The translations under genes were made by a program, and so were the position numbers. The notes under the pieces were generated by a model, which was not told the origin of the DNA, searched no databases, and worked only from the letters and a program-made list of their open reading frames with translations. From an uncultured Clostridium sp. (GTDB lineage: Bacteria > Bacillota > Clostridia > TANB77 > CAG-508), in NCBI GenBank assembly GCA_930986425.1, contig CAKNJR010000005.1:27638-91637 (forward strand): a stretch of 64,000 nucleotides of DNA, given 5' to 3'. This document shows, one piece after another, positions 1 to 17,871 of this stretch (position 1 is its first letter; the number at the start of each line of letters is the position of its first letter).

Positions 1-522
1 TTCGTCTCCATTTGAAAAGCCATAAGTATCATTATATGCCTTGAAATTATCTAAATCCAAATACATCATTGCAAATTTTTTGCCTTCATCTAATCTTTCT
101 TGCATTTCTGTCTGGATTTGATTATTTCCTGGAAGCCCTGTTAGAGGGCTTACAGTTCTATTTTTATTCAGTAATTTTATTAAATTCATAATTGTATAAT
201 AAATAATATGATAATTAGTTGGATATTTTAAGCAAATTTCTACGTCATTTTTTAAAATATCTAAAATATGCTCTTCATCATCTGATGCACTAAGTACAAT
301 TGTTAGAACATTAGTATTATCTTTAATTTTTCTAACCGCTTGCTTTATATCTAAACTTAAATATTCTTCATTTATTATACACATATCTGGAGTATCTTTT
401 TCTTTTATTTCGTTAGCGTGTATACTTTCAAGTTGTACATTTTTTTCTTTTTTCATAATCTTTTTTAAAGATTTTAACAATTTTCCATCTTTATCTTCAT
501 CTAATAGATATACTTTTTTCAT
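1..522 (-). CDS. GGDEF-domain diguanylate cyclase, N-terminal 174 aa only (gene runs off the left edge); receiver-like N-terminus
   Basis: Absent from the ORF track because the window edge truncates it. Reverse translation from ATG 522 (AAAGGA 9 nt upstream) gives MKKVYLLDEDKDG...RTVSPLTGLPGNNQIQTEMQERLDEGKKFAMMYLDLDNFKAYNDTYGFSNGDE. This is the LTGLxN...DxDxFKxxNDxxGxxxGD opening of GGDEF domains. The frame stays open to base 1. Confidence 0.75.
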   Translation of the reverse strand, partial: MKKVYLLDEDKDGKLLKSLKKIMKKEKNVQLESIHANEIKEKDTPDMCIINEEYLSLDIKQAVRKIKDNTNVLTIVLSASDDEEHILDILKNDVEICLKYPTNYHIIYYTIMNLIKLLNKNRTVSPLTGLPGNNQIQTEMQERLDEGKKFAMMYLDLDNFKAYNDTYGFSNGDE

Positions 523-555
523 GCTTTTATATCCTTTCATCAGATTAAAAGTTTA

Positions 556-1557
556 TTATAGTGTGACAGTAAATGATTGTTCTTCTACTAGGCCACTTAT
601 ATTTGTTACTGTAATTGTAACAGTATGAGTTCCTGGTGTTATTTCTTGAGTCGCTCTAATTTCTTTTTTATTTAAAGGAGCATCTCCTGTATCTGTTGTA
701 ACTCCATCTACTGTTATTGCAATTTTGCTAATTCCTTCTTCATCTTGTGCATTTATAACTAAGTTTGTTCCTTCTGCTGTAACTGTAAATGTTGGTCTAT
801 TAGCACCCTTGATTGTTTCTGTTTGAGTAGTTGTGTTTCCGTCATTATCTACTGCTGTAATTGTTAAAGTATTTTGTCCTCTTAATACCTCTACACTTGC
901 TCTTATCTGAGTTCTATCTGTGCTTGTAGAATCCAAATCTACTCTTGTAGGCTCTTCATCATTCCATTGATATGTTAAATATGACATCTCTGTTTCGTCT
1001 TTTGCTGTTATATTCAGCATATTTCCTGAAACACTTATTTCTATTGTTGGTTTTGAGCTTTCGTCTTGTTCATTTATATATTGTTTTTGGAATTGATATT
1101 CATTTCCATAGTAATCTGTTACTGTTATATTTAATATATTATTTCCAGTTGGAATTTGAGTTGTTGTTTCTAATTCTACTGTTCCGTTTCCTTGTACAGT
1201 TGTTGTTTCACCTTGTCCCCATCTATATTGTATTTGAGCGATAGGCATTTGTCCTACTGCACTTATTGTAACTTCAGTTCCTATTGGGTTTGCAGTAACT
1301 TGAGGTTCGTCTGCTAATTTTGGTTTTGATGATAGTATTCCATAAGTTGCATCTCCTATTAAAGTAAGTCCAAATAATATTATAAGTACACAAAAAACTC
1401 TTACTATTGAAACAATGCTAGCTTTATTTTCATTTGGGCTATTATAATCTACTCTTGTTTGATTATACTGATTTTTTTCTTTTTTTACCTTTTGCTGTTT
1501 AGCTTGTTTTTTTGGATTTGGCTCATTATCTGGTTGCATAGATAATATCTGATTCAT
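556..1557 (-). CDS. Membrane-anchored protein with tandem Ig-like beta-rich repeats
   Basis: 333-aa ORF with a K/Q-rich N-terminus and one TM helix (IVSIVRVFCVLIILFGLTLIG). Repeated beta-rich modules follow, ending in ITVTDYYGN / TITAVDNDGN / VTITVTNISG-type motifs. The gene starts 19 nt after the stop of adhesin A, so it looks operonic. Confidence 0.6.
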   Translation of the reverse strand: MNQILSMQPDNEPNPKKQAKQQKVKKEKNQYNQTRVDYNSPNENKASIVSIVRVFCVLIILFGLTLIGDATYGILSSKPKLADEPQVTANPIGTEVTISAVGQMPIAQIQYRWGQGETTTVQGNGTVELETTTQIPTGNNILNITVTDYYGNEYQFQKQYINEQDESSKPTIEISVSGNMLNITAKDETEMSYLTYQWNDEEPTRVDLDSTSTDRTQIRASVEVLRGQNTLTITAVDNDGNTTTQTETIKGANRPTFTVTAEGTNLVINAQDEEGISKIAITVDGVTTDTGDAPLNKKEIRATQEITPGTHTVTITVTNISGLVEEQSFTVTL

Positions 1558-1576: not shown

Positions 1577-4105
1577 TTATATTACATACCTTTTAATTAA
1601 GAATACTCCTCCAGCGATAATTGCTAATGTTCCGGCTGTTATTCCTATATATAATGGTGCGCTACCTGTTACCATTGTTAATGCTACTGGTGCATCATCT
1701 ATATCATCTTCTCCTTCTACTTTATTATTTGGAGTTGAGTCTATATCTGGTGTTTCACTTTCATTATAGTCTTCGCTTATTTCTGCTGTATTTATCATTA
1801 CTCCCATGTTCTCTTCATCATTTATCCATGTTAGTACTATTTCTACTACTGCACTTTCTCCTGGCTCTAGTAATGTATCCTTTAATGCATCTGTTACTAC
1901 TTTTCCATCTACTTCTCTCCAGCCTGGGTTATCTGCTTGATTGAATTCTAGTCCTTCTGGAATGTAGTCTGAAATTTCTGTTGCATATCCTGGTATTTCT
2001 CCTTCATTTGTTATTCTTATTTGATATCTGAATTTTATTATTGTGTTATCTATTCTGTCTTGGTTTAAGTCTACTCTTACTACTGGTTCTGGGTCTTGTT
2101 CTGCATAATGGCCTGTATCTTTTACTTTTTCTACTCCGTCTTCTATTAGTATAACTTGACTTACCCATTTTCTTAATGCTAAGTCAAAGTATTGTACATA
2201 GATTTTCTCTATATCTTGGTCATCTTCTCCATCTATCCATTCGTCCGGAGTTGAATCTATATCTTCTACCTCTTCTCCATTTTCGTCTGCATCTTCACTT
2301 ATTTCTGCTCTATTTATTATTATTCTATCTGATGTATTTGGCTCTGTTACTCTGAATGCTACTCTTACATCTTTGTAGTCAGGTGTTTCCATTGTATCTT
2401 TATCATAGGCTTGTATTAAGTTTTCCCCTAGTGTTTCTTCATTTTCTTTTGATAGATAGTCTGTTCTTATATATACTGCCTCTTCTGCATTTTCTGTTAC
2501 ATTTCCATTTGCATCATACATTACCCATCTGTATTCTTGGTTTACTTCGTTTTCCGGTAAGAATATTAATCCTTCTGGTACATCATCTTTTATTTCTTCT
2601 GCATATCCTGACATATTTCCTTCGTTGTATATTCTTATTGTATATATTACTATATCATTTTGGCATACTCTTACTGGCTCTTTTGTGTGGTTATATGTGA
2701 AGCTTGTTATTATATTGCCATTTTCATCTTCTGTTCCATAAAGAGATGTGTCTACTTGTGGTATTCTGTTTGTTATTTCTTCGTCATTTACTCCTGTGAT
2801 GAATTTTCTTAATGCTAAATCAAATTGTTTTAATATTACCTTCTCAAAATCGTCATCGTCTTCTTGTCCTGGTATATATTCGTCTCCTCTTTCTATTTCT
2901 TCATCTCTGTAATTTGGTAAGTCTTCATCTGATGGTAATACTACTTCATTTTCATTATCTCTATCTGGTATATCTAATTCATTTCTGTATTCTGTTATTT
3001 CTGCTATATTTGTTATTTCTTTTAAATATTCTGCACTATCTCTTACTCTACATTTTACTTGTATATCTGCATAATCTAATGTACTTCCTCCATTAAATGC
3101 TGTAAGTAATGTATTTCTTAGGTAGTCTGTTTCTATTGTTCTTTCATCTGTCTGCGTCCAACCATATTCCTGATTTAATTCATCATTTGGTAAGAATTCT
3201 AGTTCTGGTGGTAGATGGTCTACTATCTTTTCTACATATCCATCTACTTGTCCTTCATTATATACTCTTATTGTGTATATTACTTCGTCGCCCTTCTTTA
3301 CTTCTACTGGCTCTTTTGTATGATTGTAATTTGCTGTTGTTTCTCCATTTAATAATGGGCTTGTATCTACTTCTGGTATTCTATTTGTTACTTCTCTATC
3401 ATTTACTCCTGTGATGAATTTTCTTAGTGATAAATCAAAATATGTTGGTTCCATTATTAACTCTTCGTAGTCATCATCATCTTCATATCCTTTTCCTTTT
3501 TCTGATGTTTCTGGGTTGTAATTGTTCTTTTCTTCTTCTGTTAAATTATCTGGAGTTGAATCTACATCTTCTGTTCCTCCTAAGATGTCTTCTGCCTCTG
3601 TGATTTCTGCTACGTTTTTCAATGATATTCTTTCATCACTTGCTCTTCTTACTACTCTACACTCTATTTGTACATCTACATAATCTAAGCCATTTGTTGA
3701 ATTTGCTGTGCCTTGTATTAATGTATCTGCCAAATATCTGGTTTTTATTGTTTGTCCTTCTGCTGTCCAACCATATTGTGCATTTATACTACTTTCTGAT
3801 GCTGGTATTAACTCTAGTCCTTCTGGTAAATAGTCAGTGATTTCCTTTGCATATCCATCTATTTTTCCTTCATTGTAGATTCTTATTGTATATCTTACTA
3901 TGTTTCCTGTTTTTACGATTAGTGGTGTTTTTGTATGTGTCTTTTCTGCTGTTGTTCCATCATCAAATGTTCCTTCTCCATTTGCAACAGATTGTGCTTC
4001 ATCTTCACTTATTTGTGGTTCACGGCTTGTCTCTACTGCATTTCCATTTATATGTGTTATATATTTTCTTAATGCTAAGTCAAATGGTTGCTTTCTATTT
4101 GTAAT
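1577..4105. repeat. Segmental duplication, copy 1 (3' end of adhesin A), matching 7050..9617
   Basis: 1577-3689 corresponds to 7050-9162 (offset 5473) and 3761-4105 to 9273-9617 (offset 5512). Both minus-strand proteins and all plus-strand antisense ORFs are letter-identical across these blocks (1621..1944 = 7094..7417, 2356..2700 = 7829..8173, 2812..3096 = 8285..8569, 3109..3414 = 8582..8887). The first mismatches I read are at 3690/9163 and 4106/9618. Confidence 0.85.
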
Positions 4106-6799
4106 AATTATTGTTATTGTATTTGTTTCTTCATCATATTCCCAGTTTGTAGCTTCTGAACTTACATTAACATTCTCAAGTATATATTCTCCATTTGATA
4201 CTGTTGTATGTGCATCTACTACTATTGGACTTGTTAGTACTGAATCATATCCTGTTGGAGCTGTTGTTTCTGTAATTGTTAAACGATAATGTTCTCCTTC
4301 TCCGTATATAGGATTTGTAATATTTATTTCACCATTTTCATTTGTTGTATAACTATTTGTTGCTCTTTCGGAACTATCATTTCCTGTACTCCTGTCTTCT
4401 ATTACTGTGCTTTCTACTGTAAATACCGCACCCTGTAATTTTTTATTAGCATCATTTTCATCTTGTTTTATTATTTTTAAATTATATGAGCCTTCTAATT
4501 TTTCATTTGGTACAGTTACTTGTACAGTTAACGCTCCTGAATTATTTACTATTGTTACATCTTCGTATTCTGTTCCATCTTCTAATGTTGCATCTACACT
4601 ACTTATTGTATATTGTCCATTATTTTCTGTTTTATTTACTTTTAGAGTAATTGTTCCTGAGAATGATGAATATTCATCAGGTGGTCTAACTTCTCTTATT
4701 GTTATTGTATCTTGTGATGTTGTGTCTGTGATTGCTATATCATTTATTGAGATTTCTCCATTTTCGTCTGTTTCGACTTGTGTTTCTTGCTCATTATTTA
4801 CTTTTACTGCAAATATTGCTCCTCCTAGTTTTTCATGTGTTAGCATATCTTCTTTTATGATTTTGAAATTATAGCTTCCTGTTATTTTTGTGTTGTTTAT
4901 TGTTACTTGTACTGTATTTACTCCATCTGAACTTGTTGTTAAATTTGCATTACTACTTCCTGTTACATTACTTGCCACATATTTTCCATTTTGTTCTTCC
5001 TTCACTACTGTTAATTCTATTGGAGTATTATTTAATGCATATCCATCAGGTGCTTCTATTTCGGTAATTGTTATTGTATCTGGATTTGAAACATTTGTTA
5101 TTTGTATACTATTAATATTTATTTCTCCATTAGAATCTGTTGTGTATTCTTGTGCACTTCCTCCATTTATGCTTATATTAAATCTTGCTCCTGATAATTT
5201 ATCTTGGTTTGAAGAATCTTGTTTTATCAATTTTAATTTATATGAGCCTGAAAGTGTAGAGTTATTAACTGTAATATTTACTGTGTTTACTCCATTACTT
5301 CCTTGAGTTACATTAACACTTCCATTTTCAACTAGTCCATCATTAACATTTGAAGTAACATTACTTGCTACATATCTTCCATCTTGCAATGCTTTTGTTA
5401 CAGTCAATGTTATTGGTGTATCATTTAAAATATATCCATCAGGTGCTGTTATTTCTGTTATTGTTATTGTATCTGGATTTGATATGTCTGTAATATTTAT
5501 TCCATCTATTGTAATCTCTCCGCTTGAATCTGTAGTATATGGAGCAGCTGCGCCATTATTTATGCTTATATTAAATGTTGCTCCATCTAATTTGTTTTTA
5601 TTAGAAGAATCTTGTTTTACTAATTTAAAATTATATGAACCCGTTGGTTTTGGTAGTGTAACTTCAGATGTACTTGAATAATTTTTGTTTACTCTATCTA
5701 TAATTACTACTGGTTGATTTATTGTAAGTTCATTTTCTCCTACTGTCCACATTATTGGAGTTGTGACTTGTGTGCTTACGGAAACCTTTAACACAACATT
5801 TTCTATGTTTGTGCTTACGGGTACTGATATATAGAAGTTATTTCCTACTGTAGAATTAATTTTATCTCCTATAGTGCTTCCTGCCGTAACCTCTTGCATA
5901 TTTTGATTTAATATGCTTACATTTGAAATATCATTTGTTCCATCTGTTATTGTTGCAGATAATGTATACTCTGTATCATTATTTTTTTCTAATGTATATG
6001 GTCCTATTATATAATTGCTTCCTTGTATTTGAACTCTAACAGAGTCCGAATTTAGTGTTACCGGATTTGCCGTATTAGTTTCATAAGTATATCCATCTCT
6101 TACTGCATTTATTGCACCTTCAACTAAATAAGTATATATTGTGTCTATTTCGTTATCTACTATGTCTAAACCATATCTGTCTATAAGCGATACTCCATTT
6201 ACATATAGTTCTAATGTATTAGTATATGGATTATGATATTCTCCATCTGGGTTAGTAAAATACCATATTGCTACTTGTTCTATTGACTCTACTATATCTT
6301 CTACTGCACTTGTAGGTATTGTTCCATCTTTGAATTTACTATTACTTCCTATTCCCACTCTTTGTAAAAATTGATCCAATGTTTCTGTGTCTGGATTGTA
6401 TATATGGTCTAATACCCATACCAATTCATTATATGTTGTCATATCACTTGGTAGCTGATTTCTATATGCTCCTGTTATTGAACTTGGATTTTTTATATCA
6501 AAATATTGTGTATATGCTATAGCTGTATTATCATAATCAGCTGAGCCAAATCCTGGCCCTGCCTTTATACAGAATATTACTGTTCCATCATCATTTTCTA
6601 CTGTTCCAGAGCTGTTGTATTTCACTATATCAAATATTGATTTGTTCATAAATGTATAGTTTCCAGTTTCTCTATCAGTTGAAAATCCTTTTAGGCCCAA
6701 ATACATTGGTCCACCACTTGCTCCTTCTGATATTCCCATTGTAAAAAGCATTATTAATATTATTAAAAATATAGCTTTTAATACACTTGTTTTTTTCAT
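1577..6799 (-). CDS. Giant surface adhesin A: thioester (TQxA-type) domain, 4 CnaB-type repeats, 4 DUF11-like repeats, C-terminal TM anchor
   Basis: The track ORF is 1577..6859. I prefer ATG 6799 (MKKTSVLK, GAAGGGA 8 nt upstream) because the predicted promoter lies at 6875-6903. A signal peptide is present. Cys in VIFCIKAGPGFGS and Gln in IEQVAIWYFTNPDG match the Cys / QxA(I/V)W thioester-domain signature. Repeats are of the form GSYNFKLVKQD...TITITEITAPDGY and FDLALRK...IYNEG...NVAEI...DVDSTPDN...EDDDD. The tail is TMVTG, then a hydrophobic helix, then KRYVI. Confidence 0.85.
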   Translation of the reverse strand: MKKTSVLKAIFLIILIMLFTMGISEGASGGPMYLGLKGFSTDRETGNYTFMNKSIFDIVKYNSSGTVENDDGTVIFCIKAGPGFGSADYDNTAIAYTQYFDIKNPSSITGAYRNQLPSDMTTYNELVWVLDHIYNPDTETLDQFLQRVGIGSNSKFKDGTIPTSAVEDIVESIEQVAIWYFTNPDGEYHNPYTNTLELYVNGVSLIDRYGLDIVDNEIDTIYTYLVEGAINAVRDGYTYETNTANPVTLNSDSVRVQIQGSNYIIGPYTLEKNNDTEYTLSATITDGTNDISNVSILNQNMQEVTAGSTIGDKINSTVGNNFYISVPVSTNIENVVLKVSVSTQVTTPIMWTVGENELTINQPVVIIDRVNKNYSSTSEVTLPKPTGSYNFKLVKQDSSNKNKLDGATFNISINNGAAAPYTTDSSGEITIDGINITDISNPDTITITEITAPDGYILNDTPITLTVTKALQDGRYVASNVTSNVNDGLVENGSVNVTQGSNGVNTVNITVNNSTLSGSYKLKLIKQDSSNQDKLSGARFNISINGGSAQEYTTDSNGEININSIQITNVSNPDTITITEIEAPDGYALNNTPIELTVVKEEQNGKYVASNVTGSSNANLTTSSDGVNTVQVTINNTKITGSYNFKIIKEDMLTHEKLGGAIFAVKVNNEQETQVETDENGEISINDIAITDTTSQDTITIREVRPPDEYSSFSGTITLKVNKTENNGQYTISSVDATLEDGTEYEDVTIVNNSGALTVQVTVPNEKLEGSYNLKIIKQDENDANKKLQGAVFTVESTVIEDRSTGNDSSERATNSYTTNENGEINITNPIYGEGEHYRLTITETTAPTGYDSVLTSPIVVDAHTTVSNGEYILENVNVSSEATNWEYDEETNTITIIITNRKQPFDLALRKYITHINGNAVETSREPQISEDEAQSVANGEGTFDDGTTAEKTHTKTPLIVKTGNIVRYTIRIYNEGKIDGYAKEITDYLPEGLELIPASESSINAQYGWTAEGQTIKTRYLADTLIQGTANSTNGLDYVDVQIECRVVRRASDERISLKNVAEITEAEDILGGTEDVDSTPDNLTEEEKNNYNPETSEKGKGYEDDDDYEELIMEPTYFDLSLRKFITGVNDREVTNRIPEVDTSPLLNGETTANYNHTKEPVEVKKGDEVIYTIRVYNEGQVDGYVEKIVDHLPPELEFLPNDELNQEYGWTQTDERTIETDYLRNTLLTAFNGGSTLDYADIQVKCRVRDSAEYLKEITNIAEITEYRNELDIPDRDNENEVVLPSDEDLPNYRDEEIERGDEYIPGQEDDDDFEKVILKQFDLALRKFITGVNDEEITNRIPQVDTSLYGTEDENGNIITSFTYNHTKEPVRVCQNDIVIYTIRIYNEGNMSGYAEEIKDDVPEGLIFLPENEVNQEYRWVMYDANGNVTENAEEAVYIRTDYLSKENEETLGENLIQAYDKDTMETPDYKDVRVAFRVTEPNTSDRIIINRAEISEDADENGEEVEDIDSTPDEWIDGEDDQDIEKIYVQYFDLALRKWVSQVILIEDGVEKVKDTGHYAEQDPEPVVRVDLNQDRIDNTIIKFRYQIRITNEGEIPGYATEISDYIPEGLEFNQADNPGWREVDGKVVTDALKDTLLEPGESAVVEIVLTWINDEENMGVMINTAEISEDYNESETPDIDSTPNNKVEGEDDIDDAPVALTMVTGSAPLYIGITAGTLAIIAGGVFLIKRYVI
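4100..5650 (-). repeat. In-frame tandem CnaB/SpaA-type domain repeats (4 units) inside adhesin A
   Basis: Four units begin with (T/S/E)GSY(N/K)(F/L)K(L/I)(V/I)K(Q/E)D and contain TITI(T/R)E(I/V)xxPDxY. Confidence 0.75.
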
Positions 6800-6874
6800 A
6801 TTTTCCATCCCTTCTAACACATTAAAATTATGTAATCTTCTTTTTATATTTTTTTGCATTTTTACTTATAATAT

Positions 6875-7049: not shown

Positions 7050-9617
7050 TTATATTACATACCTTTTAATTAAGAATACTCCTCCAGCGATAATTGCTAA
7101 TGTTCCGGCTGTTATTCCTATATATAATGGTGCGCTACCTGTTACCATTGTTAATGCTACTGGTGCATCATCTATATCATCTTCTCCTTCTACTTTATTA
7201 TTTGGAGTTGAGTCTATATCTGGTGTTTCACTTTCATTATAGTCTTCGCTTATTTCTGCTGTATTTATCATTACTCCCATGTTCTCTTCATCATTTATCC
7301 ATGTTAGTACTATTTCTACTACTGCACTTTCTCCTGGCTCTAGTAATGTATCCTTTAATGCATCTGTTACTACTTTTCCATCTACTTCTCTCCAGCCTGG
7401 GTTATCTGCTTGATTGAATTCTAGTCCTTCTGGAATGTAGTCTGAAATTTCTGTTGCATATCCTGGTATTTCTCCTTCATTTGTTATTCTTATTTGATAT
7501 CTGAATTTTATTATTGTGTTATCTATTCTGTCTTGGTTTAAGTCTACTCTTACTACTGGTTCTGGGTCTTGTTCTGCATAATGGCCTGTATCTTTTACTT
7601 TTTCTACTCCGTCTTCTATTAGTATAACTTGACTTACCCATTTTCTTAATGCTAAGTCAAAGTATTGTACATAGATTTTCTCTATATCTTGGTCATCTTC
7701 TCCATCTATCCATTCGTCCGGAGTTGAATCTATATCTTCTACCTCTTCTCCATTTTCGTCTGCATCTTCACTTATTTCTGCTCTATTTATTATTATTCTA
7801 TCTGATGTATTTGGCTCTGTTACTCTGAATGCTACTCTTACATCTTTGTAGTCAGGTGTTTCCATTGTATCTTTATCATAGGCTTGTATTAAGTTTTCCC
7901 CTAGTGTTTCTTCATTTTCTTTTGATAGATAGTCTGTTCTTATATATACTGCCTCTTCTGCATTTTCTGTTACATTTCCATTTGCATCATACATTACCCA
8001 TCTGTATTCTTGGTTTACTTCGTTTTCCGGTAAGAATATTAATCCTTCTGGTACATCATCTTTTATTTCTTCTGCATATCCTGACATATTTCCTTCGTTG
8101 TATATTCTTATTGTATATATTACTATATCATTTTGGCATACTCTTACTGGCTCTTTTGTGTGGTTATATGTGAAGCTTGTTATTATATTGCCATTTTCAT
8201 CTTCTGTTCCATAAAGAGATGTGTCTACTTGTGGTATTCTGTTTGTTATTTCTTCGTCATTTACTCCTGTGATGAATTTTCTTAATGCTAAATCAAATTG
8301 TTTTAATATTACCTTCTCAAAATCGTCATCGTCTTCTTGTCCTGGTATATATTCGTCTCCTCTTTCTATTTCTTCATCTCTGTAATTTGGTAAGTCTTCA
8401 TCTGATGGTAATACTACTTCATTTTCATTATCTCTATCTGGTATATCTAATTCATTTCTGTATTCTGTTATTTCTGCTATATTTGTTATTTCTTTTAAAT
8501 ATTCTGCACTATCTCTTACTCTACATTTTACTTGTATATCTGCATAATCTAATGTACTTCCTCCATTAAATGCTGTAAGTAATGTATTTCTTAGGTAGTC
8601 TGTTTCTATTGTTCTTTCATCTGTCTGCGTCCAACCATATTCCTGATTTAATTCATCATTTGGTAAGAATTCTAGTTCTGGTGGTAGATGGTCTACTATC
8701 TTTTCTACATATCCATCTACTTGTCCTTCATTATATACTCTTATTGTGTATATTACTTCGTCGCCCTTCTTTACTTCTACTGGCTCTTTTGTATGATTGT
8801 AATTTGCTGTTGTTTCTCCATTTAATAATGGGCTTGTATCTACTTCTGGTATTCTATTTGTTACTTCTCTATCATTTACTCCTGTGATGAATTTTCTTAG
8901 TGATAAATCAAAATATGTTGGTTCCATTATTAACTCTTCGTAGTCATCATCATCTTCATATCCTTTTCCTTTTTCTGATGTTTCTGGGTTGTAATTGTTC
9001 TTTTCTTCTTCTGTTAAATTATCTGGAGTTGAATCTACATCTTCTGTTCCTCCTAAGATGTCTTCTGCCTCTGTGATTTCTGCTACGTTTTTCAATGATA
9101 TTCTTTCATCACTTGCTCTTCTTACTACTCTACACTCTATTTGTACATCTACATAATCTAAGTTACTTACTGGTGTTTGTCCATTTGTTGCTCCATCATT
9201 TTCTTCTACATTGCTTCCTGTTCCTCTTATTAAAGTGTCTGCTAAGTATGTTGTTGTTACTTCTCTACCATTTGCTGTCCAACCATATTGTGCATTTATA
9301 CTACTTTCTGATGCTGGTACTAACTCTAGTCCTTCTGGTAAATAGTCAGTGATTTCCTTTGCATATCCATCTATTTTTCCTTCATTGTAGATTCTTATTG
9401 TATATCTTACTATGTTTCCTGTTTTTACGATTAGTGGTGTTTTTGTATGTGTCTTTTCTGCTGTTGTTCCATCATCAAATGTTCCTTCTCCATTTGCAAC
9501 AGATTGTGCTTCATCTTCACTTATTTGTGGTTCACGGCTTGTCTCTACTGCATTTCCATTTATATGTGTTATATATTTTCTTAATGCTAAGTCAAATGGT
9601 TGCTTTCTATTTGTAAT
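7050..9617. repeat. Segmental duplication, copy 2 (3' end of adhesin B)
   Basis: See copy 1. It is interrupted by a divergent patch at 9163-9272, which is 39 nt longer than the patch in copy 1. Confidence 0.85.
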
Positions 9618-12600
9618 TGTTATTGTTATTGTATTTGTTTCTTCATCAAATGACCAATTTGTATTTTGTGGACTTGCTGTTATATTTTCTAGCATATATT
9701 GTTCATTAGTTATTGTACTATATGCATCAATTATAATTGGCTCTGTTATTAGAGTATCATATCCTGTTGGAGCTATTGTTTCAGTAATTGTTAAACGATA
9801 ATGTTCGTCATTTGCATTTATAGGATTTGTAATGTTTATTTCGCCATTTTCGTTTGTAATATAACTGTGTGTGCTTTCTTCTCCATTAACACTGGTTGTA
9901 ATATCAAATGTTGCTCCTTTAAGTTTTTTACTTTCATCATTTTCATCTTGTTTTATTATCTTTAAATTATATAATCCTTCTACCTTTTCATTTGGTATCT
10001 TTACCTGTACTGTCATGTTTCCATCAATGTTTGTTAATCCTATATCATCATAGTTTGTTTCACCATCTAAGGTTGCTTCTACATTATTTACTAAATATTT
10101 TCCATTATCTTCTATTTTATCTATCTTTAATATAATTGTTCCTTCAAAAGATGAATATTCATCTGGTGGTTTTACTTCTCTTATTGTTATTGTATCTTGC
10201 GATGTTGTGTCTGTTATTGCTATATCATTTATTGAGATTTCTCCATTTTTGTCTGTTTCGACTTGTGTTTCTTCTTCATTATTTACTTTTACTGCAAATA
10301 TAGCTCCACCTAATTTTTCTCCTGTTGTTTTATCTTCTTTAATGATTCTAAAATCGTAATTTCCAGTTATTTTTGTGTTATTTATTGCTATATTTACTGT
10401 GTTTACTCCATCTTGGCTTGTCGTTAAATTTGCATTGTTACTTCCTGTTACATTACTTGCTACATATTTTCCATTTTGTTCTTCTTTTATTACTGTTAAT
10501 TCTATTGGAGTATTATCTAATACATATCCATCTGGTGCTTCTATTTCTGTAATTGTTATTGTATCTGGATTTGAAACATTTGTTATTTGTATACTATTAA
10601 TATTTATTTCTCCATTAGAATCTGTTGTGTATTCTTGTGCACTTCCTCTATTTATGCTTATATTAAATCTTGCTCCTAATAATTTATCTTGGTTTGAAGA
10701 ATCTTGTTTTATCAATTTTAATTTATATGACCCTGAAAGTGTAGAGTTATTAACTGTAATATTTACTGTGTTTACTCCATTGCTTCCTTGAGTTATATTG
10801 ACACTTCCACTTTCAACTAGACCATCATTAACATTTGAAGTAACATTGCTTGCCACATATTTATCCGATTGTTCTTCTTTACTTATGGTTAGTGTTATCG
10901 GTTCATTATTTAGAATATATCCTTCTAATGTTTCTATTTCTTCTATTACTATTGTGTCATCTGTTGTGTCTGTTATTATGATATCATTGATTTGAACTTC
11001 ACCATTTGAATTTGTTGTGTATTCTCTTGCACCCTTTTCGTTTATGTTAATATTGAATTTTACCCCTTGTAGCTTTTGGGTTGTTGTTGCATCTTGTTTT
11101 ATTAATTTTAAGTTATATGAGCCATCTTTATTAGTATTATTTACAATAATTTCTACTGTATTTACTCCATCTGGATTTGTTACTAAATTAGCATTATTAC
11201 TTCCTGTTACGTTGCTTGCTACATAACGGTTTTCTTGTTCTTCCTTGCTTACTGTTAATGTTATTGGGTTTGAATTTAGAATATATCCCTCTAATGTTTC
11301 TATTTCTTCTATTACTATTGTATCATTAGATGTATTTGTTATTTCTATATTACTAATTTCGATTTCTCCGTTAGCATTTGTTGTGTATTCTTGTGCGCCT
11401 TCTCCATTTACTTTAATTCTAAATTTTACACCTTCTAGTTTTTGACTATTTTGTGCATCTTGCTTTATTAATTTTAAATTGTATGAACCTGTTTTTCTCG
11501 TATTATTTAATGTAACTTGTACTGTATTTTCTCCTATTATTTCTGCTATATCTTGCGAGCCTACTGGTTTACTCATACTTACTGATTCTACTTTATATTG
11601 TCCATCTATTTCTGTCTTTTTTACGATTATTGTAATTGGTTCTTCATTTAGAATGTATCCATTTATTGTTTCTATTTCTTCTATTACTATTGTGTCGTCT
11701 GTTGTATCTTCAATTTTAATGCCACTAATTTGAATTTCTCCATTTGAATTTGTTGTGTATTCTTTTGCACCTTCTCCATTTACATTAATATTGAATTTTA
11801 CTCCTTGCAACTTTTGTGTAGTTGTTTCATCTTGCTTTATTAGTTTTAAGTTATATGAGCCTTCTATTTTTTCATTCGGTATTGTTACCTCTACTGTTAC
11901 TTTTCCTGCGTTGTTTACTATTTCTACTCCTTCATGTTCTGTTCCATCTTCTAATGTTGCTTTTACATTATTTACTGTGTATTTTCCGTTTTCTTCTATT
12001 TTATCTACTTTTAATGTAATTGTTCCTGAAAATGATGAGTATTCATCTGGTGGTTGGATTTCTCTTATTGTTATTGTATCTTGTGTGTTTGTGTCTGTTA
12101 TTGCTATATCTTCTATTGAGATTTCTCCACTACTATTTGTTTCTATTTGTCTTTCTTCTTCATTATTTACTTTTACTGCAAATATTGCTCCTCCTAGTGT
12201 TTCTCCTGTTGTTTTATCTTCCTTTATTATTTTGAAATTATAGCTTCCCGTTATTTTTGTATTGTCTACTGTTATTTGAACTGTATTTATTCCATCTACA
12301 CCAGTGGTTAAACTTGCATTACTGTTTCCTGTTACGTTGCTTGCCACATATCTGCCGTTTTGTAGTGATTTTGTTATTGTCAGTGTAATTGGAGTACTAT
12401 TTAATATATATCCATCAGGTGCTTCTATTTCTGTAATTGTTATTGTGTCATTACTTGATATATCTGTTATGCTTATTCCATTTATGGTAATTTCGCCACT
12501 TGAATTTGTCGTATATGTTGTTGTTTGTCCATTATTTACTCTAATGCTAAATCTTGCTCCATTTAATTTATTTTGATTTAAAGCATCCTGCTTTATTAAT

Positions 12601-13784
12601 TTAAAGTTATATGAGCCTGTTATATTAGGTAATGTTACTTCTGATGAGCTTGAATAACTTTTGTTCACTTCGTCAATTACTACTACTGGTTGGTTTATTG
12701 CAAGTTCATTAGCTCCTACTGTCCATAATAGAGGGGTATTTACTCTAGTACTTACTGATATTTCTAATCTGACTTTTTCTATATCTGTATTAACTGGTAC
12801 TGATAAATAAAAATTATTTCCTACTGTAGAGTTTATTTTTTCTCCTATTGTACTGCCTTGTGTAATTTCACTTTTATTTCTATCTAAAATTTTTACATTT
12901 GAAATATTACTAGTTCCATCAGTTACAGTTGCTGATAATGTATATGCTGTATCATTATTTCTTTCTATTGTATATGGTCCTATAATATAATTGTTTCCTT
13001 CAATTGTGGTTGTTACTGAATTAGAATTAAGTGTTACAGGATTTACTGTATTACTATTATATGTGTAACCACCTCTTACAGCAGTTATTGCTCCTTCTAC
13101 AAAATATGTGTAAATTGTATCTATCTCATTATCAACGATATCTAGCCCATATTTATCTATTAATGATTCGCTATCTACATATAATTCTAATGTATTAGTA
13201 TATGGATTGTGATACTCTCCACTCGGATTAGTAAAATACCAAATTGCAACCTGCTCTATTGATTCAACTATATCTCTTACTTCGTTTGCTGGTATTGTTC
13301 CATTTCTAAAATCACTACTTCTCCATATTCCAGTTCTTTCTAGGAAGTCATCCATTGATTCATTTTCCGGATTATATAGATGGTCAAGTACCCAAACCAA
13401 TTGATTATATGTTGTCATATTTGTAGGTAATTGATTTCTGTATGAATCTTGAGTTCCTTCTGCAAAGCTCGAACTTTTTATATCAAAATATTGTGTATAG
13501 CTTATTACATCATTTGAATACGATTCTGAACCAAATCCCGCTCCTGCTTTTACACAAAAGATAACTGTTCCATCATCATTTTCTGTTGTTCCTGAAGAAT
13601 TAAATTTTACAATTTTAAACACAGATTTATTTAGGAAAGAATATTCTCCAGTTGCTCTTGCTGTCGATTTTCCTTTCAATCCCAAATATAATGGACCTCC
13701 ACTTGCTGCTTTAGAAATAGTAACCCCTACTAATAGTGCAAAGATTAGTGTAATTATTATCCTTAGTAATTTTTTCATTTTCAT
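7050..13784 (-). CDS. Giant surface adhesin B: thioester (TQxA-type) domain, 8 CnaB-type repeats, 4 DUF11-like repeats, C-terminal TM anchor
   Basis: 2244-aa ORF with an AGAGGGG RBS and signal peptide MKMKKLLRIIITLIFALLVGVTISKA. Thioester signature VIFCVKAGAGFGS / IEQVAIWYFTNPSG. Eight GSYNxK(L/I)IK(Q/E)D units and four FDL(A/S)LRK units. The last roughly 700 aa are identical to adhesin A. Confidence 0.9.
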   Translation of the reverse strand: MKMKKLLRIIITLIFALLVGVTISKAASGGPLYLGLKGKSTARATGEYSFLNKSVFKIVKFNSSGTTENDDGTVIFCVKAGAGFGSESYSNDVISYTQYFDIKSSSFAEGTQDSYRNQLPTNMTTYNQLVWVLDHLYNPENESMDDFLERTGIWRSSDFRNGTIPANEVRDIVESIEQVAIWYFTNPSGEYHNPYTNTLELYVDSESLIDKYGLDIVDNEIDTIYTYFVEGAITAVRGGYTYNSNTVNPVTLNSNSVTTTIEGNNYIIGPYTIERNNDTAYTLSATVTDGTSNISNVKILDRNKSEITQGSTIGEKINSTVGNNFYLSVPVNTDIEKVRLEISVSTRVNTPLLWTVGANELAINQPVVVIDEVNKSYSSSSEVTLPNITGSYNFKLIKQDALNQNKLNGARFSIRVNNGQTTTYTTNSSGEITINGISITDISSNDTITITEIEAPDGYILNSTPITLTITKSLQNGRYVASNVTGNSNASLTTGVDGINTVQITVDNTKITGSYNFKIIKEDKTTGETLGGAIFAVKVNNEEERQIETNSSGEISIEDIAITDTNTQDTITIREIQPPDEYSSFSGTITLKVDKIEENGKYTVNNVKATLEDGTEHEGVEIVNNAGKVTVEVTIPNEKIEGSYNLKLIKQDETTTQKLQGVKFNINVNGEGAKEYTTNSNGEIQISGIKIEDTTDDTIVIEEIETINGYILNEEPITIIVKKTEIDGQYKVESVSMSKPVGSQDIAEIIGENTVQVTLNNTRKTGSYNLKLIKQDAQNSQKLEGVKFRIKVNGEGAQEYTTNANGEIEISNIEITNTSNDTIVIEEIETLEGYILNSNPITLTVSKEEQENRYVASNVTGSNNANLVTNPDGVNTVEIIVNNTNKDGSYNLKLIKQDATTTQKLQGVKFNININEKGAREYTTNSNGEVQINDIIITDTTDDTIVIEEIETLEGYILNNEPITLTISKEEQSDKYVASNVTSNVNDGLVESGSVNITQGSNGVNTVNITVNNSTLSGSYKLKLIKQDSSNQDKLLGARFNISINRGSAQEYTTDSNGEININSIQITNVSNPDTITITEIEAPDGYVLDNTPIELTVIKEEQNGKYVASNVTGSNNANLTTSQDGVNTVNIAINNTKITGNYDFRIIKEDKTTGEKLGGAIFAVKVNNEEETQVETDKNGEISINDIAITDTTSQDTITIREVKPPDEYSSFEGTIILKIDKIEDNGKYLVNNVEATLDGETNYDDIGLTNIDGNMTVQVKIPNEKVEGLYNLKIIKQDENDESKKLKGATFDITTSVNGEESTHSYITNENGEINITNPINANDEHYRLTITETIAPTGYDTLITEPIIIDAYSTITNEQYMLENITASPQNTNWSFDEETNTITITITNRKQPFDLALRKYITHINGNAVETSREPQISEDEAQSVANGEGTFDDGTTAEKTHTKTPLIVKTGNIVRYTIRIYNEGKIDGYAKEITDYLPEGLELVPASESSINAQYGWTANGREVTTTYLADTLIRGTGSNVEENDGATNGQTPVSNLDYVDVQIECRVVRRASDERISLKNVAEITEAEDILGGTEDVDSTPDNLTEEEKNNYNPETSEKGKGYEDDDDYEELIMEPTYFDLSLRKFITGVNDREVTNRIPEVDTSPLLNGETTANYNHTKEPVEVKKGDEVIYTIRVYNEGQVDGYVEKIVDHLPPELEFLPNDELNQEYGWTQTDERTIETDYLRNTLLTAFNGGSTLDYADIQVKCRVRDSAEYLKEITNIAEITEYRNELDIPDRDNENEVVLPSDEDLPNYRDEEIERGDEYIPGQEDDDDFEKVILKQFDLALRKFITGVNDEEITNRIPQVDTSLYGTEDENGNIITSFTYNHTKEPVRVCQNDIVIYTIRIYNEGNMSGYAEEIKDDVPEGLIFLPENEVNQEYRWVMYDANGNVTENAEEAVYIRTDYLSKENEETLGENLIQAYDKDTMETPDYKDVRVAFRVTEPNTSDRIIINRAEISEDADENGEEVEDIDSTPDEWIDGEDDQDIEKIYVQYFDLALRKWVSQVILIEDGVEKVKDTGHYAEQDPEPVVRVDLNQDRIDNTIIKFRYQIRITNEGEIPGYATEISDYIPEGLEFNQADNPGWREVDGKVVTDALKDTLLEPGESAVVEIVLTWINDEENMGVMINTAEISEDYNESETPDIDSTPNNKVEGEDDIDDAPVALTMVTGSAPLYIGITAGTLAIIAGGVFLIKRYVI
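9612..12630 (-). repeat. In-frame tandem CnaB/SpaA-type domain repeats (8 units) inside adhesin B
   Basis: Eight units with the GSYNFK/GSYNLK/GSYKLK/GNYDFR start motif. Some units are near-identical to units of adhesin A (antisense ORFs 4890..5306 and 10375..10791 are near-identical). Confidence 0.75.
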
Positions 13785-14042: not shown

Positions 14043-14654
14043 TTATATTACATATCTTTTTATTAAGAATACTCCTCCAGCGATAATTGCTAATGTTCCG
14101 GCTGTTATTCCTATATATAATGGTGCGCTACCTGTTACCATTGTTAATGCTACTGGTGCATCATCTATATCATCTTCTCCTTCTACTTTATTATTTGGAG
14201 TTGAGTCTATATCTGGTGTTTCACTTTCATTATAGTCTTCGCTTATTTCTGCTGTATTTATCATTACTCCCATGTTCTCTTCATCATTTATCCATGTTAG
14301 TACTATTTCTACTACTGCACTTTCTCCTGGCTCTAGTAATGTATCCTTTAATGCATCTGTTACTACTTTTCCATCTACTTCTCTCCAGCCTGGGTTATCT
14401 GCTTGATTGAATTCTAGTCCTTCTGGAATGTAGTCTGAAATTTCTGTTGCATATCCTGGTATTTCTCCTTCATTTGTTATTCTTATTTGATATCTGAATT
14501 TTATTATTGTGTTATCTATTCTGTCTTGGTTTAAGTCTACTCTTACTACTGGTTCTGGGTCTTGTTCTGCATAATGGCCTGTATCTTTTACTTTTTCTAC
14601 TCCGTCTTCTATTAGTATAACTTGACTTACCCATTTTCTTAATGCTAAGTCAAA
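14043..14654. repeat. Segmental duplication, copy 3 (3' end of adhesin C), shared by all three adhesin genes
   Basis: About 14067-14654 equals 7074-7661 (offset 6993) and 1601-2188. Antisense ORF 14087..14410 is identical to 7094..7417 and 1621..1944. The first mismatch I read is at 14655/7662. The last 8 codons are synonymous-variant. Confidence 0.8.
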
Positions 14655-17600
14655 ATATTGTACGTAGATTTGCTCTATATCTTGGTCATCTTCTCCGTCT
14701 ATCCATTCATCTGGAGTTGAATCTATATCTGTAACATCTTCTCCCTCTGAGTCGCTATCATCACTAATTTCAGCTCTGTTTATTATTATTCTGTCTGATG
14801 TATTTGGCTCTGTTACTCTGAATGCTACTCTTACATCTCTGTAATCTGGCCCTTCCATTGTTTCTGCATCATATGCTTGTAATAAGTTTTCTCCTTCTGT
14901 CTCTTCTTGTGCTTTTGATAAATAGTCTGTTCTTATATATGCTGCCTCATTCGCATTTTCTGTTACATTTCCATTCGCATCATACATTACCCATCTGTAT
15001 TCTTGGTTTACTTCGTTTTCCGGTAAGAATATTAATCCTTTTGGTACATCATCTTTTATTTCTTCTGCATATCCTGACATTGTTCCTTCATTGTAGATTC
15101 TTATTGTATAGATTACTATATCATTTTGGCATACTCTTACAGGGTCTTTTGTATGATTATATGTGAAGTTAGTAATTAAATTGCCCTCTTCATCTGTTGT
15201 TCCATATAATGATGTATCTACTTCTGGAACTCTGTTTGTTATTTCTTCGTCATTTACTCCAGTAATAAATTTTCTTAATGCTAAATCAAATTTTTGCAAT
15301 ATTACTTTTTCAAAGTCGTCATCATCTTCTTGTCCTGGTATATATGCTATTCCAGAATTTATTTCTTCATTTTTATAATTTGGTAATTCTTCATCTGATG
15401 GTAAAACTACATCTCTCGCATTATCTCTATCTATTAAATTAGATTCATTACTATATTTTGTAATTTCTGCGATATTAGTAATGTTAGTTAATGTTGGTGC
15501 TGTATTTACAACTCTACATCTAATTTTTACTTCTTTATAGCTTAATGAGTTTGTATTTGAGTCAAATGCTGGTATAACATTTTCTACATCATTTTCTCTT
15601 GATAATATACTTGTTCTAAGAGTTCTTTGAGTTTCGTCTGATGTATCTATTATCCATCCATACTCGGCATTCAAATCATCATTTACTATAAATTCTAAGT
15701 ATGGTGGTAAGTGCTCTACTATTTCGTCAACATATCCATCTACTTGGCCTTCATTATATACTCTTATTGTATAAGTTACTATGTCGCCTGCTTCAACACT
15801 TACAGGATTCTTTGTATGATTATATGTTGCTGTTGTTTCTCCTGAAAGTAATGGATTAACATCTACCTCAGGCTCTCTGTTTGTTATTTCTCTATCATTT
15901 ATTGCTGTTATAAATTTTCTAAGTGAAAGGTCAAAATATTTTCCAAGCATAACTAGTTCTTCATAATCATCATCATCTTGATATCCTTTTCCTTCTTCTG
16001 ATGTTCCTGGAAGATAGTTATTTATTTCGTTATTAGTTAAGTTACCTGTTTCTGAATCCCTGTCTACTCTTCCACCTGTAATGTCATGTGCTCCAAGTAT
16101 TTCAGCAACATTCTTCAAAGAAACATCTTGCTCTGCAACATCTTTTGTTACTCTACATTCTATTTGTACATCTACATAATCAATAGTATATACTCCATTG
16201 TCTGGGTCTTTATCAAAAGCAGATATTAGAGTATCTTTTAAATAATCTGTTACTACTGCTTGTCGTGAAGTAGTGCTTCCATCAGTTGATACTGGTTCAG
16301 ATGCATATTCTGTCCAACCATATTTTGTATTAATTGTACTTTCACTTGCATCTACTAATTCTAATCCTGCTGGCAAGTAATCAATTATTGTATCAGCATA
16401 TCCATCTATATCCCCCTCGTTGTATATCCTGATTGTATATATTATTCTGTCATCTTTATCTACAACTAAAGGTGTTTTTGTATGAGTTTTTGTAACTGTT
16501 GTTCCATTGTCAAAATCAGCTGTTCCTGTTGCTAATGCTCTTAAATCCTCTTGTGTAATTTTAGGTTCACGGCTTACTTTTACTGGTGAGCCATTTATTG
16601 AAGTTATAAATTTTCTAAGTGCTAAGTCAAATTCTGGATTTGTTATTTGTATTGTTGTTGCGTCTCTATAATTTTGTTTATCTCTTGAAATTATTACGAC
16701 TGGTTGATTATTGGCTAAGCTTGCTTGTCCTACTGTCCAAAGTGTTTGTGTTGTATTATAATATTCTGCATTAACAGCTAATGTTGCATCTGTAATATTT
16801 GATGATATTGGAATTGAAATGTAAAAATTATTTCCAATTGTTGTTTGTATTTTTTCTGTTAAATTACTTCCAGTTGTTATTTCTTGTCTATTTTCATCTA
16901 ATACTTTTGCATTAGATATTGTTCCAGTAGAGCTGTATAACTCTGCTGATAAATTGTATTCTCCATTTGATTGTTCTTCTATTCTATAAGGTCCTAATAT
17001 ATAGTTTGAATTGTCCATTGTTAATGTTGCTTGATTTTTTATAAATGTTATTGGTGATGTTCCAATAATTGAATCTTCATAAGTATATCCACCATTAACT
17101 GCGTCAATTGCTCCTTGTACTAAATAATGATATATTGCATCAATCTCATTTTCTACTATATCTAGTCCGTATTTATCTATTAAAGATTCTCCATCAACAG
17201 CGATTTCTACTGTTTCTGTTGAATCATTATGATATTCTCCATCTGGATTTGTAAAATACCAAATCGCTACTTGTTGTATACATTCTAATATATCTTCTAT
17301 TTCTTGACCATATGTTGCACTATCTCTTAAGAAGCTATCTTCTGAAACTCCTGCATTATCTAGTAAATTTTGTTTTGATTCATTTGCAAGTGCTATTTCA
17401 TCTGATGTAGCTCCTGTTTTTGCTGGAATATATAAGTGGTCTAGTACCCATATCAACTCATTATATGTTGTCATATCTGTTGGAAGAGATTCTCTATATG
17501 GTGATTCAATTGCATCTGGATTTTTCATATTAAAATATTGTGTATAATTTACTATTGTATTTTGATATGATTCTGAACCAAATCCTGGTCCTGCTTTTAC

Positions 17601-17834
17601 ACAGTATATTGAAGCATTATCTCCTACCTCTGTTGTTCCTGTGCTATTATTATATTTTACAATTTTGAATATATCTTTTGAATTAAAAGTATATCTTCCT
17701 GTTTCTCTTTCTGTTGTTCTTCCTTTTAAGCCCAAATATATACCATTAACATCACTTACAGCATAATTATTTGTTGTAAACAATAAAATGGTTATTAAAA
17801 TTATTCCTATAATTACTCCTAATTTTTTTGTCAT
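14043..17834 (-). CDS. Surface adhesin C: thioester (TQxA-type) domain directly followed by 4 DUF11-like repeats, same C-terminal anchor
   Basis: The track ORF is 14043..17852. ATG 17834 (MTKKLGVIIG, AGAGAGG 7 nt upstream) is preferred because the predicted -10 box is at 17872-17877. Thioester signature SIYCVKAGPGFGS / IQQVAIWYFTNPDG. No CnaB repeats. The last roughly 200 aa are identical to A and B. Confidence 0.85.
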   Translation of the reverse strand: MTKKLGVIIGIILITILLFTTNNYAVSDVNGIYLGLKGRTTERETGRYTFNSKDIFKIVKYNNSTGTTEVGDNASIYCVKAGPGFGSESYQNTIVNYTQYFNMKNPDAIESPYRESLPTDMTTYNELIWVLDHLYIPAKTGATSDEIALANESKQNLLDNAGVSEDSFLRDSATYGQEIEDILECIQQVAIWYFTNPDGEYHNDSTETVEIAVDGESLIDKYGLDIVENEIDAIYHYLVQGAIDAVNGGYTYEDSIIGTSPITFIKNQATLTMDNSNYILGPYRIEEQSNGEYNLSAELYSSTGTISNAKVLDENRQEITTGSNLTEKIQTTIGNNFYISIPISSNITDATLAVNAEYYNTTQTLWTVGQASLANNQPVVIISRDKQNYRDATTIQITNPEFDLALRKFITSINGSPVKVSREPKITQEDLRALATGTADFDNGTTVTKTHTKTPLVVDKDDRIIYTIRIYNEGDIDGYADTIIDYLPAGLELVDASESTINTKYGWTEYASEPVSTDGSTTSRQAVVTDYLKDTLISAFDKDPDNGVYTIDYVDVQIECRVTKDVAEQDVSLKNVAEILGAHDITGGRVDRDSETGNLTNNEINNYLPGTSEEGKGYQDDDDYEELVMLGKYFDLSLRKFITAINDREITNREPEVDVNPLLSGETTATYNHTKNPVSVEAGDIVTYTIRVYNEGQVDGYVDEIVEHLPPYLEFIVNDDLNAEYGWIIDTSDETQRTLRTSILSRENDVENVIPAFDSNTNSLSYKEVKIRCRVVNTAPTLTNITNIAEITKYSNESNLIDRDNARDVVLPSDEELPNYKNEEINSGIAYIPGQEDDDDFEKVILQKFDLALRKFITGVNDEEITNRVPEVDTSLYGTTDEEGNLITNFTYNHTKDPVRVCQNDIVIYTIRIYNEGTMSGYAEEIKDDVPKGLIFLPENEVNQEYRWVMYDANGNVTENANEAAYIRTDYLSKAQEETEGENLLQAYDAETMEGPDYRDVRVAFRVTEPNTSDRIIINRAEISDDSDSEGEDVTDIDSTPDEWIDGEDDQDIEQIYVQYFDLALRKWVSQVILIEDGVEKVKDTGHYAEQDPEPVVRVDLNQDRIDNTIIKFRYQIRITNEGEIPGYATEISDYIPEGLEFNQADNPGWREVDGKVVTDALKDTLLEPGESAVVEIVLTWINDEENMGVMINTAEISEDYNESETPDIDSTPNNKVEGEDDIDDAPVALTMVTGSAPLYIGITAGTLAIIAGGVFLIKRYVI

Positions 17835-17871
17835 AATTTGACCTCTCTTCATATATTATTATACAATTTAT

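Follow-up and report, generated by a model that had tools for sequence, protein, structure and literature searches.

A proline-free, sorting-signal-like C-terminal tail on adhesins of a family of uncultured gut Clostridia

Three large adhesins encoded in a 64,000-nucleotide stretch of DNA from an uncultured Clostridium sp. (assembly GCA_930986425.1, contig CAKNJR010000005.1, positions 27,638 to 91,637; this whole stretch is referred to as the window) end in the same tail, which consists of the pentapeptide TMVTG, a hydrophobic segment, and the basic end KRYVI. This tail characterizes a single family of gut Clostridia with small genomes (1 to 2 Mb). Its conserved unit is L-[STA]-[IV]-x-T-G rather than TMVTG, which is a genus-level variant of the family motif. 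Judged by its sequence, the tail looks like a sortase sorting signal: its motif is in register with canonical signals, and the proline alone is absent. We favor, at about an even chance, the reading that the tail derives from a sorting signal, is peculiar to this lineage and free of proline, is fused to the last CLIPPER (DUF11) domain of the adhesin, and is still cut by one of the family's two core sortases.

The family-wide tail and its resemblance to sorting signals

With the last 180 residues as queries, a word-indexed search yielded 6,876 matches, and an exhaustive search of 1.84 billion cluster representatives yielded 609 clusters at E < 1e-30. Motif counts were taken from 131 representatives of 50%-identity clusters. 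The family module begins with EDDIDDAPV, the end of a CLIPPER domain, and continues with [M/I/L/A]-L-[S/T/A]-[I/V]-x-T-G, four variable residues, a near-invariant Y, and a hydrophobic stretch ending in GG-h-x-L-I, followed by KK[Y/F]V[L/I]. At a fixed offset after EDDIDDAPV, G was found in all 131 representatives and T in 123 (94%); L was likewise found in 123, and I or V occupied P3 in 116. The positions just after G varied, the commonest residue there reaching at most 28%. Proline took the place of I/V in only 4 of the 131 clusters (MPKTG, SPSTG, SPATG, and QPATG occur across clusters and one further locus). The commonest pentapeptides were SIKTG and TVKTG, SISTG and SIQTG were also among the common ones, and TMVTG represented a single cluster; written out as peptides, motif-spanning stretches of proline-free tails read PVALTMVTGSAP and PVMLSIKTGQAR. 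The same spectrum of motifs was seen in 80 loci of species-representative genomes, all of them metagenome-assembled genomes from the guts of humans, mice, rabbits, and deer that are labelled as uncultured Clostridia or as "Clostridium sp. CAG:571". The spacing in the family is the motif, 16 to 24 uncharged residues (23 in the window), and K[KR][YF]V[LI]. An earlier note on this DNA, made from the window alone, had named a lack of conservation in orthologues as the result that would count against a sorting signal; the T-G instead proved to be conserved family-wide. The pattern exceeds chance because it is conserved in other genomes, not because the window holds three copies of it.

Genomes were counted with a hidden Markov model (HMM) of the tail alignment; the counts hold for the sampled genomes, and related genomes are not independent observations. 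The tail was present in 125 of 125 sampled genomes of the window's family and in 6 of 125 from the other four families of the order. Sortases were always present in the window's family; in the rest of the order, where the tail is nearly absent, the window sortase used as a query often found no match. A class-wide survey for lineages that bear the tail and lack sortases found no tail in 391 sampled genomes from more than 80 other families and hence offered no independent test.

The tail has the tripartite layout of LPXTG signals of the class A/C/D type: a short motif, a hydrophobic segment, and a positively charged end, on a secreted protein. Shared with those signals are the T-G, with T at P1 and G at P1', the 0 to 7 spacer residues, the hydrophobic segment of about 21 residues, rich in small ones, the short basic tail, a carrier that is a fibrillar adhesin with a signal peptide, and the presence of sortases in the genome. 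The differences lie at P3, where I/V (M in the window) replaces proline, at P4, where S/T/A replaces leucine, in the leucine of proline-free tails, which stands one residue further upstream, and in the unusually conserved KKYV[LI] end. Proline at P3 occurs in about 90% of known sorting signals and is their best-conserved determinant (PMC5148588). On the NCBIfam LPXTG model (TIGR01167, LPXTG_anchor; cut-off, 15.9 bits) the window tail scored 13.7 and 12.4 bits, proline-free family tails ranged from 0 to 15.7 bits, and a proline-bearing SPSTG tail passed with 19.3 bits. The NCBIfam scan held no dedicated C-terminal sorting-domain model for the tail; no curated family covers it, and we found no description of it in the literature. 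Its best NCBIfam match is NF058582, the actinobacterial "LAVTG" model of class E type signals, at 17.5 bits against a cut-off of 27.

The strong rival to cleavage is a plain, uncleaved C-terminal membrane anchor, in which the head passes through the wall on its long stalk and the likeness to sorting signals reflects descent from a defunct one. We give this rival a substantial, if less than even, chance. Two comparisons within the genome argue against it. The hydrophobic segments of the family tails (hydropathy, 2.53 ± 0.29; G/A/S/T fraction, 0.36) agree in composition with those of the genome's xPxTG tails (2.52 and 0.39) and not with those of its 16 other C-terminal transmembrane (TM) anchors (3.18 and 0.21). 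In addition, an HMM of the part of the tail that follows the G, run against all 5,709 open reading frames (ORFs) of the genome, matched only the three adhesins, an AMGTG paralogue, and a giant protein with a canonical LPPTG (C2:12528-18437; E 3.7e-4), all other matches having E > 0.6. Relatives of this giant protein carry the same post-G module behind HPPTG, LPPTG, TPPTG, or IPNTG, so that the module is common to canonical substrates and the proline-free adhesins. The AMGTG paralogue (G000:C2:7690-18437 for the pair; paralogue at C2:7690-12552, 1,620 amino acids, ...LIAMGTG...) overlaps the start of the 1,969-residue giant protein by about 25 nucleotides. The tripartite layout that the earlier note had seen thus stood, and the post-G homology and segment composition found here support it; its choice of TMVTG as the motif did not stand, given the single cluster in which this pentapeptide occurs.

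Architecture of the adhesins and a proposed anchoring route

All three adhesin genes lie on the minus strand. Adhesin A (1577-6859; 1,760 amino acids, from the ORF and its translation) has a signal peptide, a thioester-domain-like head, SpaA/CnaB repeats, CLIPPER repeats, and the tail. Adhesin B (7050-13784; 2,244 amino acids) has the same architecture with more SpaA repeats, and adhesin C (14043-17852; 1,269 amino acids) has a head, four CLIPPER repeats, and the tail common to A and B. N-terminal signal peptides are visible, the heads contain Cys...EQVAIWYFTN and are thioester-domain-like, and each adhesin carries four DUF11 repeats. Adhesin A scored 140 bits for SpaA, 49.6 bits for DUF11, and 19.3 bits for TED, the last below the TED cut-off of 22; adhesin C scored 68 bits for DUF11 and 66.9 bits for TIGR01451. 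The repeats belong to the CLIPPER family, with PF01345 scores of 68.4 and 49.6 bits (cut-off, 24.6) and the signature FDLALRK...NxAEI...DSTP...EDD.D; the EDD.D..V motif recurs at internal repeat junctions.

Translation bore out the earlier description of the shared ends: all three adhesins finish in ...DIDDAPVALTMVTG, 23 hydrophobic residues, and KRYVI. Read on the minus strand, positions 1577-1705 encode DIDDAPVALTMVTGSAPLYIGITAGTLAIIAGGVFLIKRYVI and a stop, and the last 42 residues are identical in A, B, and C. In adhesin A, DIDDAPVAL (1679-1705) is the end of the last CLIPPER domain and is followed by TMVTG (1664-1678), a local variant of the L-preceded family motif [STA]-[IV]-x-T-G. Next come the uncharged 23-residue segment SAPLYIGITAGTLAIIAGGVFLI (1595-1663), rich in small residues and predicted to be a helix (Kyte-Doolittle, 2.06; G/A/S/T fraction, 0.50), and the basic KRYVI (1580-1594), for which the family consensus is KK[YF]V[LI]; the stop codon (1577-1579) follows directly. 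TMVTG lies at 7137-7151 in adhesin B and at 14130-14144 in adhesin C. The tail of B (7050-7178) is DNA-identical to 1577-1705, and that of C (14043-14171) encodes the same peptide. Counted from the stop, A and B are DNA-identical over 2,113 nucleotides; between C and A, the final 129 nucleotides show 2 synonymous differences, with no others for about 600 nucleotides. Because the DNA is nearly identical, the three tails of the window count as one observation, not three. No ORF of the window carries a canonical LPXTG tail, as the earlier note had also stated; a scan for xPxT[GAN] or LxxTG within 45 residues of the C-terminus gave only antisense or TM-less chance matches.

Thioester- and isopeptide-bearing fibrillar adhesins of the Firmicutes are normally sortase-anchored, and Streptococcus pyogenes Cpa/SfbI and Clostridium perfringens CpTIE, which represent the TIE adhesins, end in canonical LPXTG. 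The window adhesins resemble these proteins in their N-terminal Cys...(E/Q)QVAIW thioester-type head and share SpaA/CnaB repeats and isopeptide-type stalk repeats with the TIE adhesins on CLIPPER stalks (PMC12617251); DUF11 was recently recognized as a stalk domain with an isopeptide bond and given the name CLIPPER (PMC12617251). They are unlike them in that the last stalk strand runs directly into a proline-free motif. In the reading that we favor, the hydrophobic segment and KK[Y/F]V[L/I] would hold the adhesin in the membrane after Sec export, one of the two core, class-D-like housekeeping sortases would cut L-[S/T/A]-[I/V]-x-T-G after its T, and the Thr carboxyl would be joined to peptidoglycan. 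The outcome would be an unbroken covalent chain from the thioester head through the isopeptide-locked stalk to the cell wall. A covalent head on a cross-linked stalk would seem to call for a covalent anchor; behind such a head and stalk, a non-covalent membrane tether would be the weak link.

Downstream of adhesin A (window 1-1557), across a gap of 19 nucleotides, lies a gene for a 333-residue membrane protein with Ig-like repeats, followed by one for a response-regulator/GGDEF protein. In a distant relative with ALSIKTG tails (L009:24640-25745), three adhesins are likewise followed by a 308-residue protein and then by a GGDEF protein.

Cleaved signal or membrane anchor

Several observations weigh against cleavage and for an uncleaved anchor, which is a strong rival above all for the window's own subgroup. 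In this "A-L" subgroup (ALTMVTG, ALTVVTG, and others) T is kept in 9 of 13 clusters and lost in the other four (A in 3, P in 1), while outside it T is kept in 114 of 118 and lost in 4; K or R, usual at P2 in the family, never occurs there in the subgroup. The signal looks partly relaxed in this group. Across the family, P3 is I, V, or M, and not P, in 127 of the 131 clusters. A signal that is discarded would not need the degree of conservation seen in the Y behind the motif and in the KKYV[LI] end, and strong conservation of the cytoplasmic end is what a permanent anchor would show.

An AlphaFold model of the last 180 residues (alignment of 64 sequences from relatives' loci; mean pLDDT, 81.6) points in the same direction. 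In the model, IDDAPVALTM forms the final beta-strand (residues 140 to 149), so that the L and the first two motif residues lie inside it; V-T-G-S is a four-residue link between strand and helix, and the helix starts at residue 154, two residues past G. Because the L and the first motif residues belong to the last strand, constraints of the fold alone could account for the conservation of L and I/V, and an enzyme may have poor access to the motif. As a membrane anchor, the tail would accordingly be read as the last CLIPPER strand (L-x-[I/V]), a strand-to-helix turn (T-G), an aromatic residue of the juxtamembrane belt (Y), and a positive-inside end (KKYVL). Less easily explained by such an anchor are the G, unchanged in more than 200 diverse sequences amid freely varying neighbors, the tolerance of proline at a supposed core-strand position, and the sortase genes found directly behind such adhesins in some relatives. 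A Foldseek search of the last-domain model against the PDB returned generic Ig-like matches only, the best at E 1.4e-3; the CLIPPER structure 9IFR ranked 27th, and the search contributed nothing on the tail.

The known specificities of sortases also count against cleavage. We know of no sortase that accepts I/V, which are beta-branched, or M at P3. Even Ala is rejected at this position by sortases of classes A, B, and D, and C. perfringens SrtD prefers LPQTGS and does not process LAETG (PMC5148588). In class E sortases, proline at P3 is dispensable and LAXTG is accepted (PMC5148588). Class E signals and the NF058582 model share with our tails a proline-free pentapeptide ending in T-G, but have Ala and not I/V/M at P3, Leu at P4, and a different phylum; moreover, all non-class-B sortases of the genome score only 42 to 70 bits on the class E model, whose cut-off is 160. 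There is also a resemblance in letters to the (S/P)PxTG signals of Clostridioides difficile SrtB, as SIKTG, SISTG, and SIQTG are SPKTG, SPSTG, and SPQTG with I for P, and the NVQTG tail of C. difficile CbpA has a beta-branched residue at P3. The earlier note had listed NVQTG as a known SrtB motif, which is wrong: SrtB cleaves SPKTG, PPKTG, SPSTG, and SPQTG and fails to cleave NVQTG in vitro, and the two SPxTG proteins with SPSTG and SPQTG are not anchored in vivo (PMC4155245, PMC5569036). NVQTG is thus a negative precedent. The adhesin tails lack the proline of C. difficile-type class B signals. A class B partner was dropped as a candidate, given that result for NVQTG and given that class B sortases, present in the window's genome, were not found in its genus mate G110, which keeps four proline-free tails.

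Genomic context adds three further points on the same side. Related tails were found in two genomes of other families in which no sortase domain was detected, G140 (SPATG tail, 97% complete) and G085 (GVKTG tail, 89% complete), with mis-binning or incompleteness possible for both. No sortase gene lies within 3 kb of the adhesin genes in the 80 genome loci or in L009, most genomes having no adjacent sortase, and downstream of the window's adhesin triad there are genes for the Ig-repeat membrane protein and the GGDEF protein and the dcw cluster, with no sortase among them. Finally, every genome that was checked had canonical sortase substrates, so no additional ones are required for the sortases to be retained. 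The window's genome has six xPxTG tails (VPKTG, LPPTG, TPKTG, IPQTG, and two LPQTG), which could occupy its sortases without the adhesin tails. A search for a genome with sortases and no other substrate came to nothing, as even G110, with its two sortases, holds canonical LPXTG anchors above the cut-off.

We also considered processing by an enzyme other than a sortase, either a protease that acts within or next to the membrane and sheds the adhesin, or a family-specific sorting enzyme. Such an enzyme would fit three features: the tail is conserved over its whole length as a domain, with Y, GG, and KKYV[LI] end; it is confined to one family, as is typical of dedicated sorting systems; and related tails occur in genomes where no sortase was found. 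No candidate enzyme was identified, rhomboid, CPBP, and exosortase homologues not having been searched for, and the only conserved non-sortase neighbors are the Ig-repeat membrane protein and the GGDEF protein downstream. We regard this explanation as very improbable.

Candidate sortases and what the tail would mean

The genome (1.76 Mb, 28% GC, 34 contigs) contains nine ORFs with a sortase domain. Two stand alone, one in the window and one at C1:194055-194735, and only these two are core to the family: strong full-length orthologues of the window type were found in 121 of 125 family genomes and of the C1:194055 type in about 120 of 125. G110 has exactly these two, neither of class B. Both fall below every class-specific NCBIfam cut-off. 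Among solved structures, class D enzymes are nearest to them: C. perfringens SrtD (4D70) to the window type and the Bacillus anthracis enzyme 2KW8 to the C1:194055 type. Several genera of the family carry the C1:194055 type in two or three tandem copies (L157:2448-4709 in G219, L158:2549-4062 in G227, and L148:1698-3232 in G117); the window type is mostly single copy.

The window sortase (55631-56356, minus strand, 241 amino acids; Pfam Sortase, 91 bits) has the intact triad described earlier (GHN...TLITC...R). It lies 38 kb from the adhesins, flanked by rsmA/ksgA (56398-57225) and nrdD (53114-55240), with a PBP gene nearby (57326-59596). That it is an enzyme dedicated to the TMVTG tails is the weaker option and, in our estimate, unlikely. 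It is a family-core gene, it stays within roughly 20 to 50 kb of the adhesin locus in many relatives, and it closes an array in G175 that begins with a proline-free adhesin (SVETG) and continues with an LPPTG giant protein. Its co-occurrence with the tail, however, is a single lineage-level event that is common to the second sortase type, and three or four family genomes with only weak matches to it (E 1e-26 to 1e-38) keep the tail. Phylogenetic profiling was tried as a means of picking the cognate sortase and set aside; both core sortases and the tail are near-universal in the family and rare outside it, so the profile cannot discriminate and amounts to one evolutionary event. The nearest solved relative of the window sortase prefers LPQTGS, and LPQTG and IPQTG proteins exist in the genome.

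Gene neighborhoods were surveyed in one genome per genus, within 2.5 kb of each sortase. In G234 and G053, a sortase gene on the same strand starts 12 to 18 bp after the stop of a proline-free adhesin (TISTG, TIATG), and this sortase, in the sole direct adjacency to such an adhesin, is of the C1:194055 type and not of the window type; in 20 other genera the C1:194055 type had no tailed neighbor. In G119 and G175, and also in G006, an xPPTG giant protein immediately precedes the window type, which had no tailed neighbor in the other 18 genera sampled. The window sortase is thus, if anything, linked to the canonical class, and the special link to the adhesins proposed in the earlier note did not hold up for an enzyme that is one of nine in its genome and has its own xPPTG neighbors in relatives. 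We consider the C1:194055-194735 type at least as good a candidate. Adjacency to proline-free adhesins is about as frequent as adjacency to canonical xPPTG substrates (2 of about 21 genera).

The gene order is rsmA, giant protein(s), sortase in G006 and G175; in the window, rsmA abuts the sortase directly. At this junction (window 55631-57225) relatives carry one or two giant surface-protein genes (L161:2786-11853; L160:720-13366), an xPPTG protein with or without an adhesin, and the junction seems to gain and lose such genes between genera. A pair like the AMGTG paralogue and its LPPTG giant protein precedes the window-type sortase in G175 (L160:720-12020).

Adjacency in three genera hints at two sortases for two signal classes. 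There are precedents in two-sortase systems, such as B. anthracis SrtA (LPXTG) and SrtD (LPNTA) or pilus-specific and housekeeping pairs, which resemble the present case in having two family-conserved sortases and two tail classes (xPPTG/LPQTG and L[ST][IV]xTG), each near a different sortase type in some relatives. Here, unlike in those systems, the pairing comes from adjacency in those three genera only and both enzymes lie outside the NCBIfam class models. A reading with two separate sorting channels, in which the window type would serve xPPTG/LPQTG and the C1:194055 type would have evolved for L-[S/T]-[I/V]-x-T-G, with a beta-branched P3 at the end of a strand, is rather doubtful. To our knowledge, such a specificity has not been described for any sortase. 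Within that two-channel reading, in pairs of a proline-free adhesin and an xPPTG giant protein, the signal might join the adhesin to its partner, as in a pilus, and not to the wall.

The remaining sortase-domain ORFs of the genome stand in other settings. Three are of class B, one beside a TPKTG protein and two among apparent conjugative-element genes. Two small TLITC sortases (C4:88559-89146 and C2:80680-81279), among apparent mobile-element genes, adjoin proteins of 1,002 residues (G000:C4:84956-87964, ending in TLPRTGK) and 869 residues (G000:C2:82438-85047, ending in TLPRTGC), in which a single residue follows LPRTG and neither a hydrophobic segment nor a basic tail is present; a sortase motif at the extreme C-terminus is unusual. 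Another small sortase (C1:3364-3942) lies between a 330-residue secreted protein ending in KLPVTFD, a TM segment, and KKK, that is, with LPVTF and no G (L003, G000:C1:1870-5235), and a giant DUF11 protein of more than 1,084 residues whose C-terminus is lost at the contig end (G000:C1:1-3253). The region may represent a locus with its own dedicated sortase and a further unusual motif. The last ORF (L008:1252-1896, equal to G000:C15:6067-6711; 214 amino acids; Pfam, 47 bits) has IIILITYVKD in place of TLxTC and no catalytic Cys. From its sequence, its product is probably a catalytically dead sortase homologue; truncated matches resembling it occur in G139 and G205.

The motif is found on hundreds of adhesin clusters in a widespread family of uncultured gut Clostridia. 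If the tail is cleaved, it would be a new sortase recognition motif with I/V for Pro at P3 and would provide protein ligation by sortases with a new enzyme and tag pair. Because current annotation models miss the motif, the part of the surface proteome that is anchored to the wall would then be under-called in these bacteria. If the tail is not cleaved, it would be a clear case of a sorting signal decayed into a membrane anchor on covalently locked adhesins, and the view of how such adhesins work mechanically would change.

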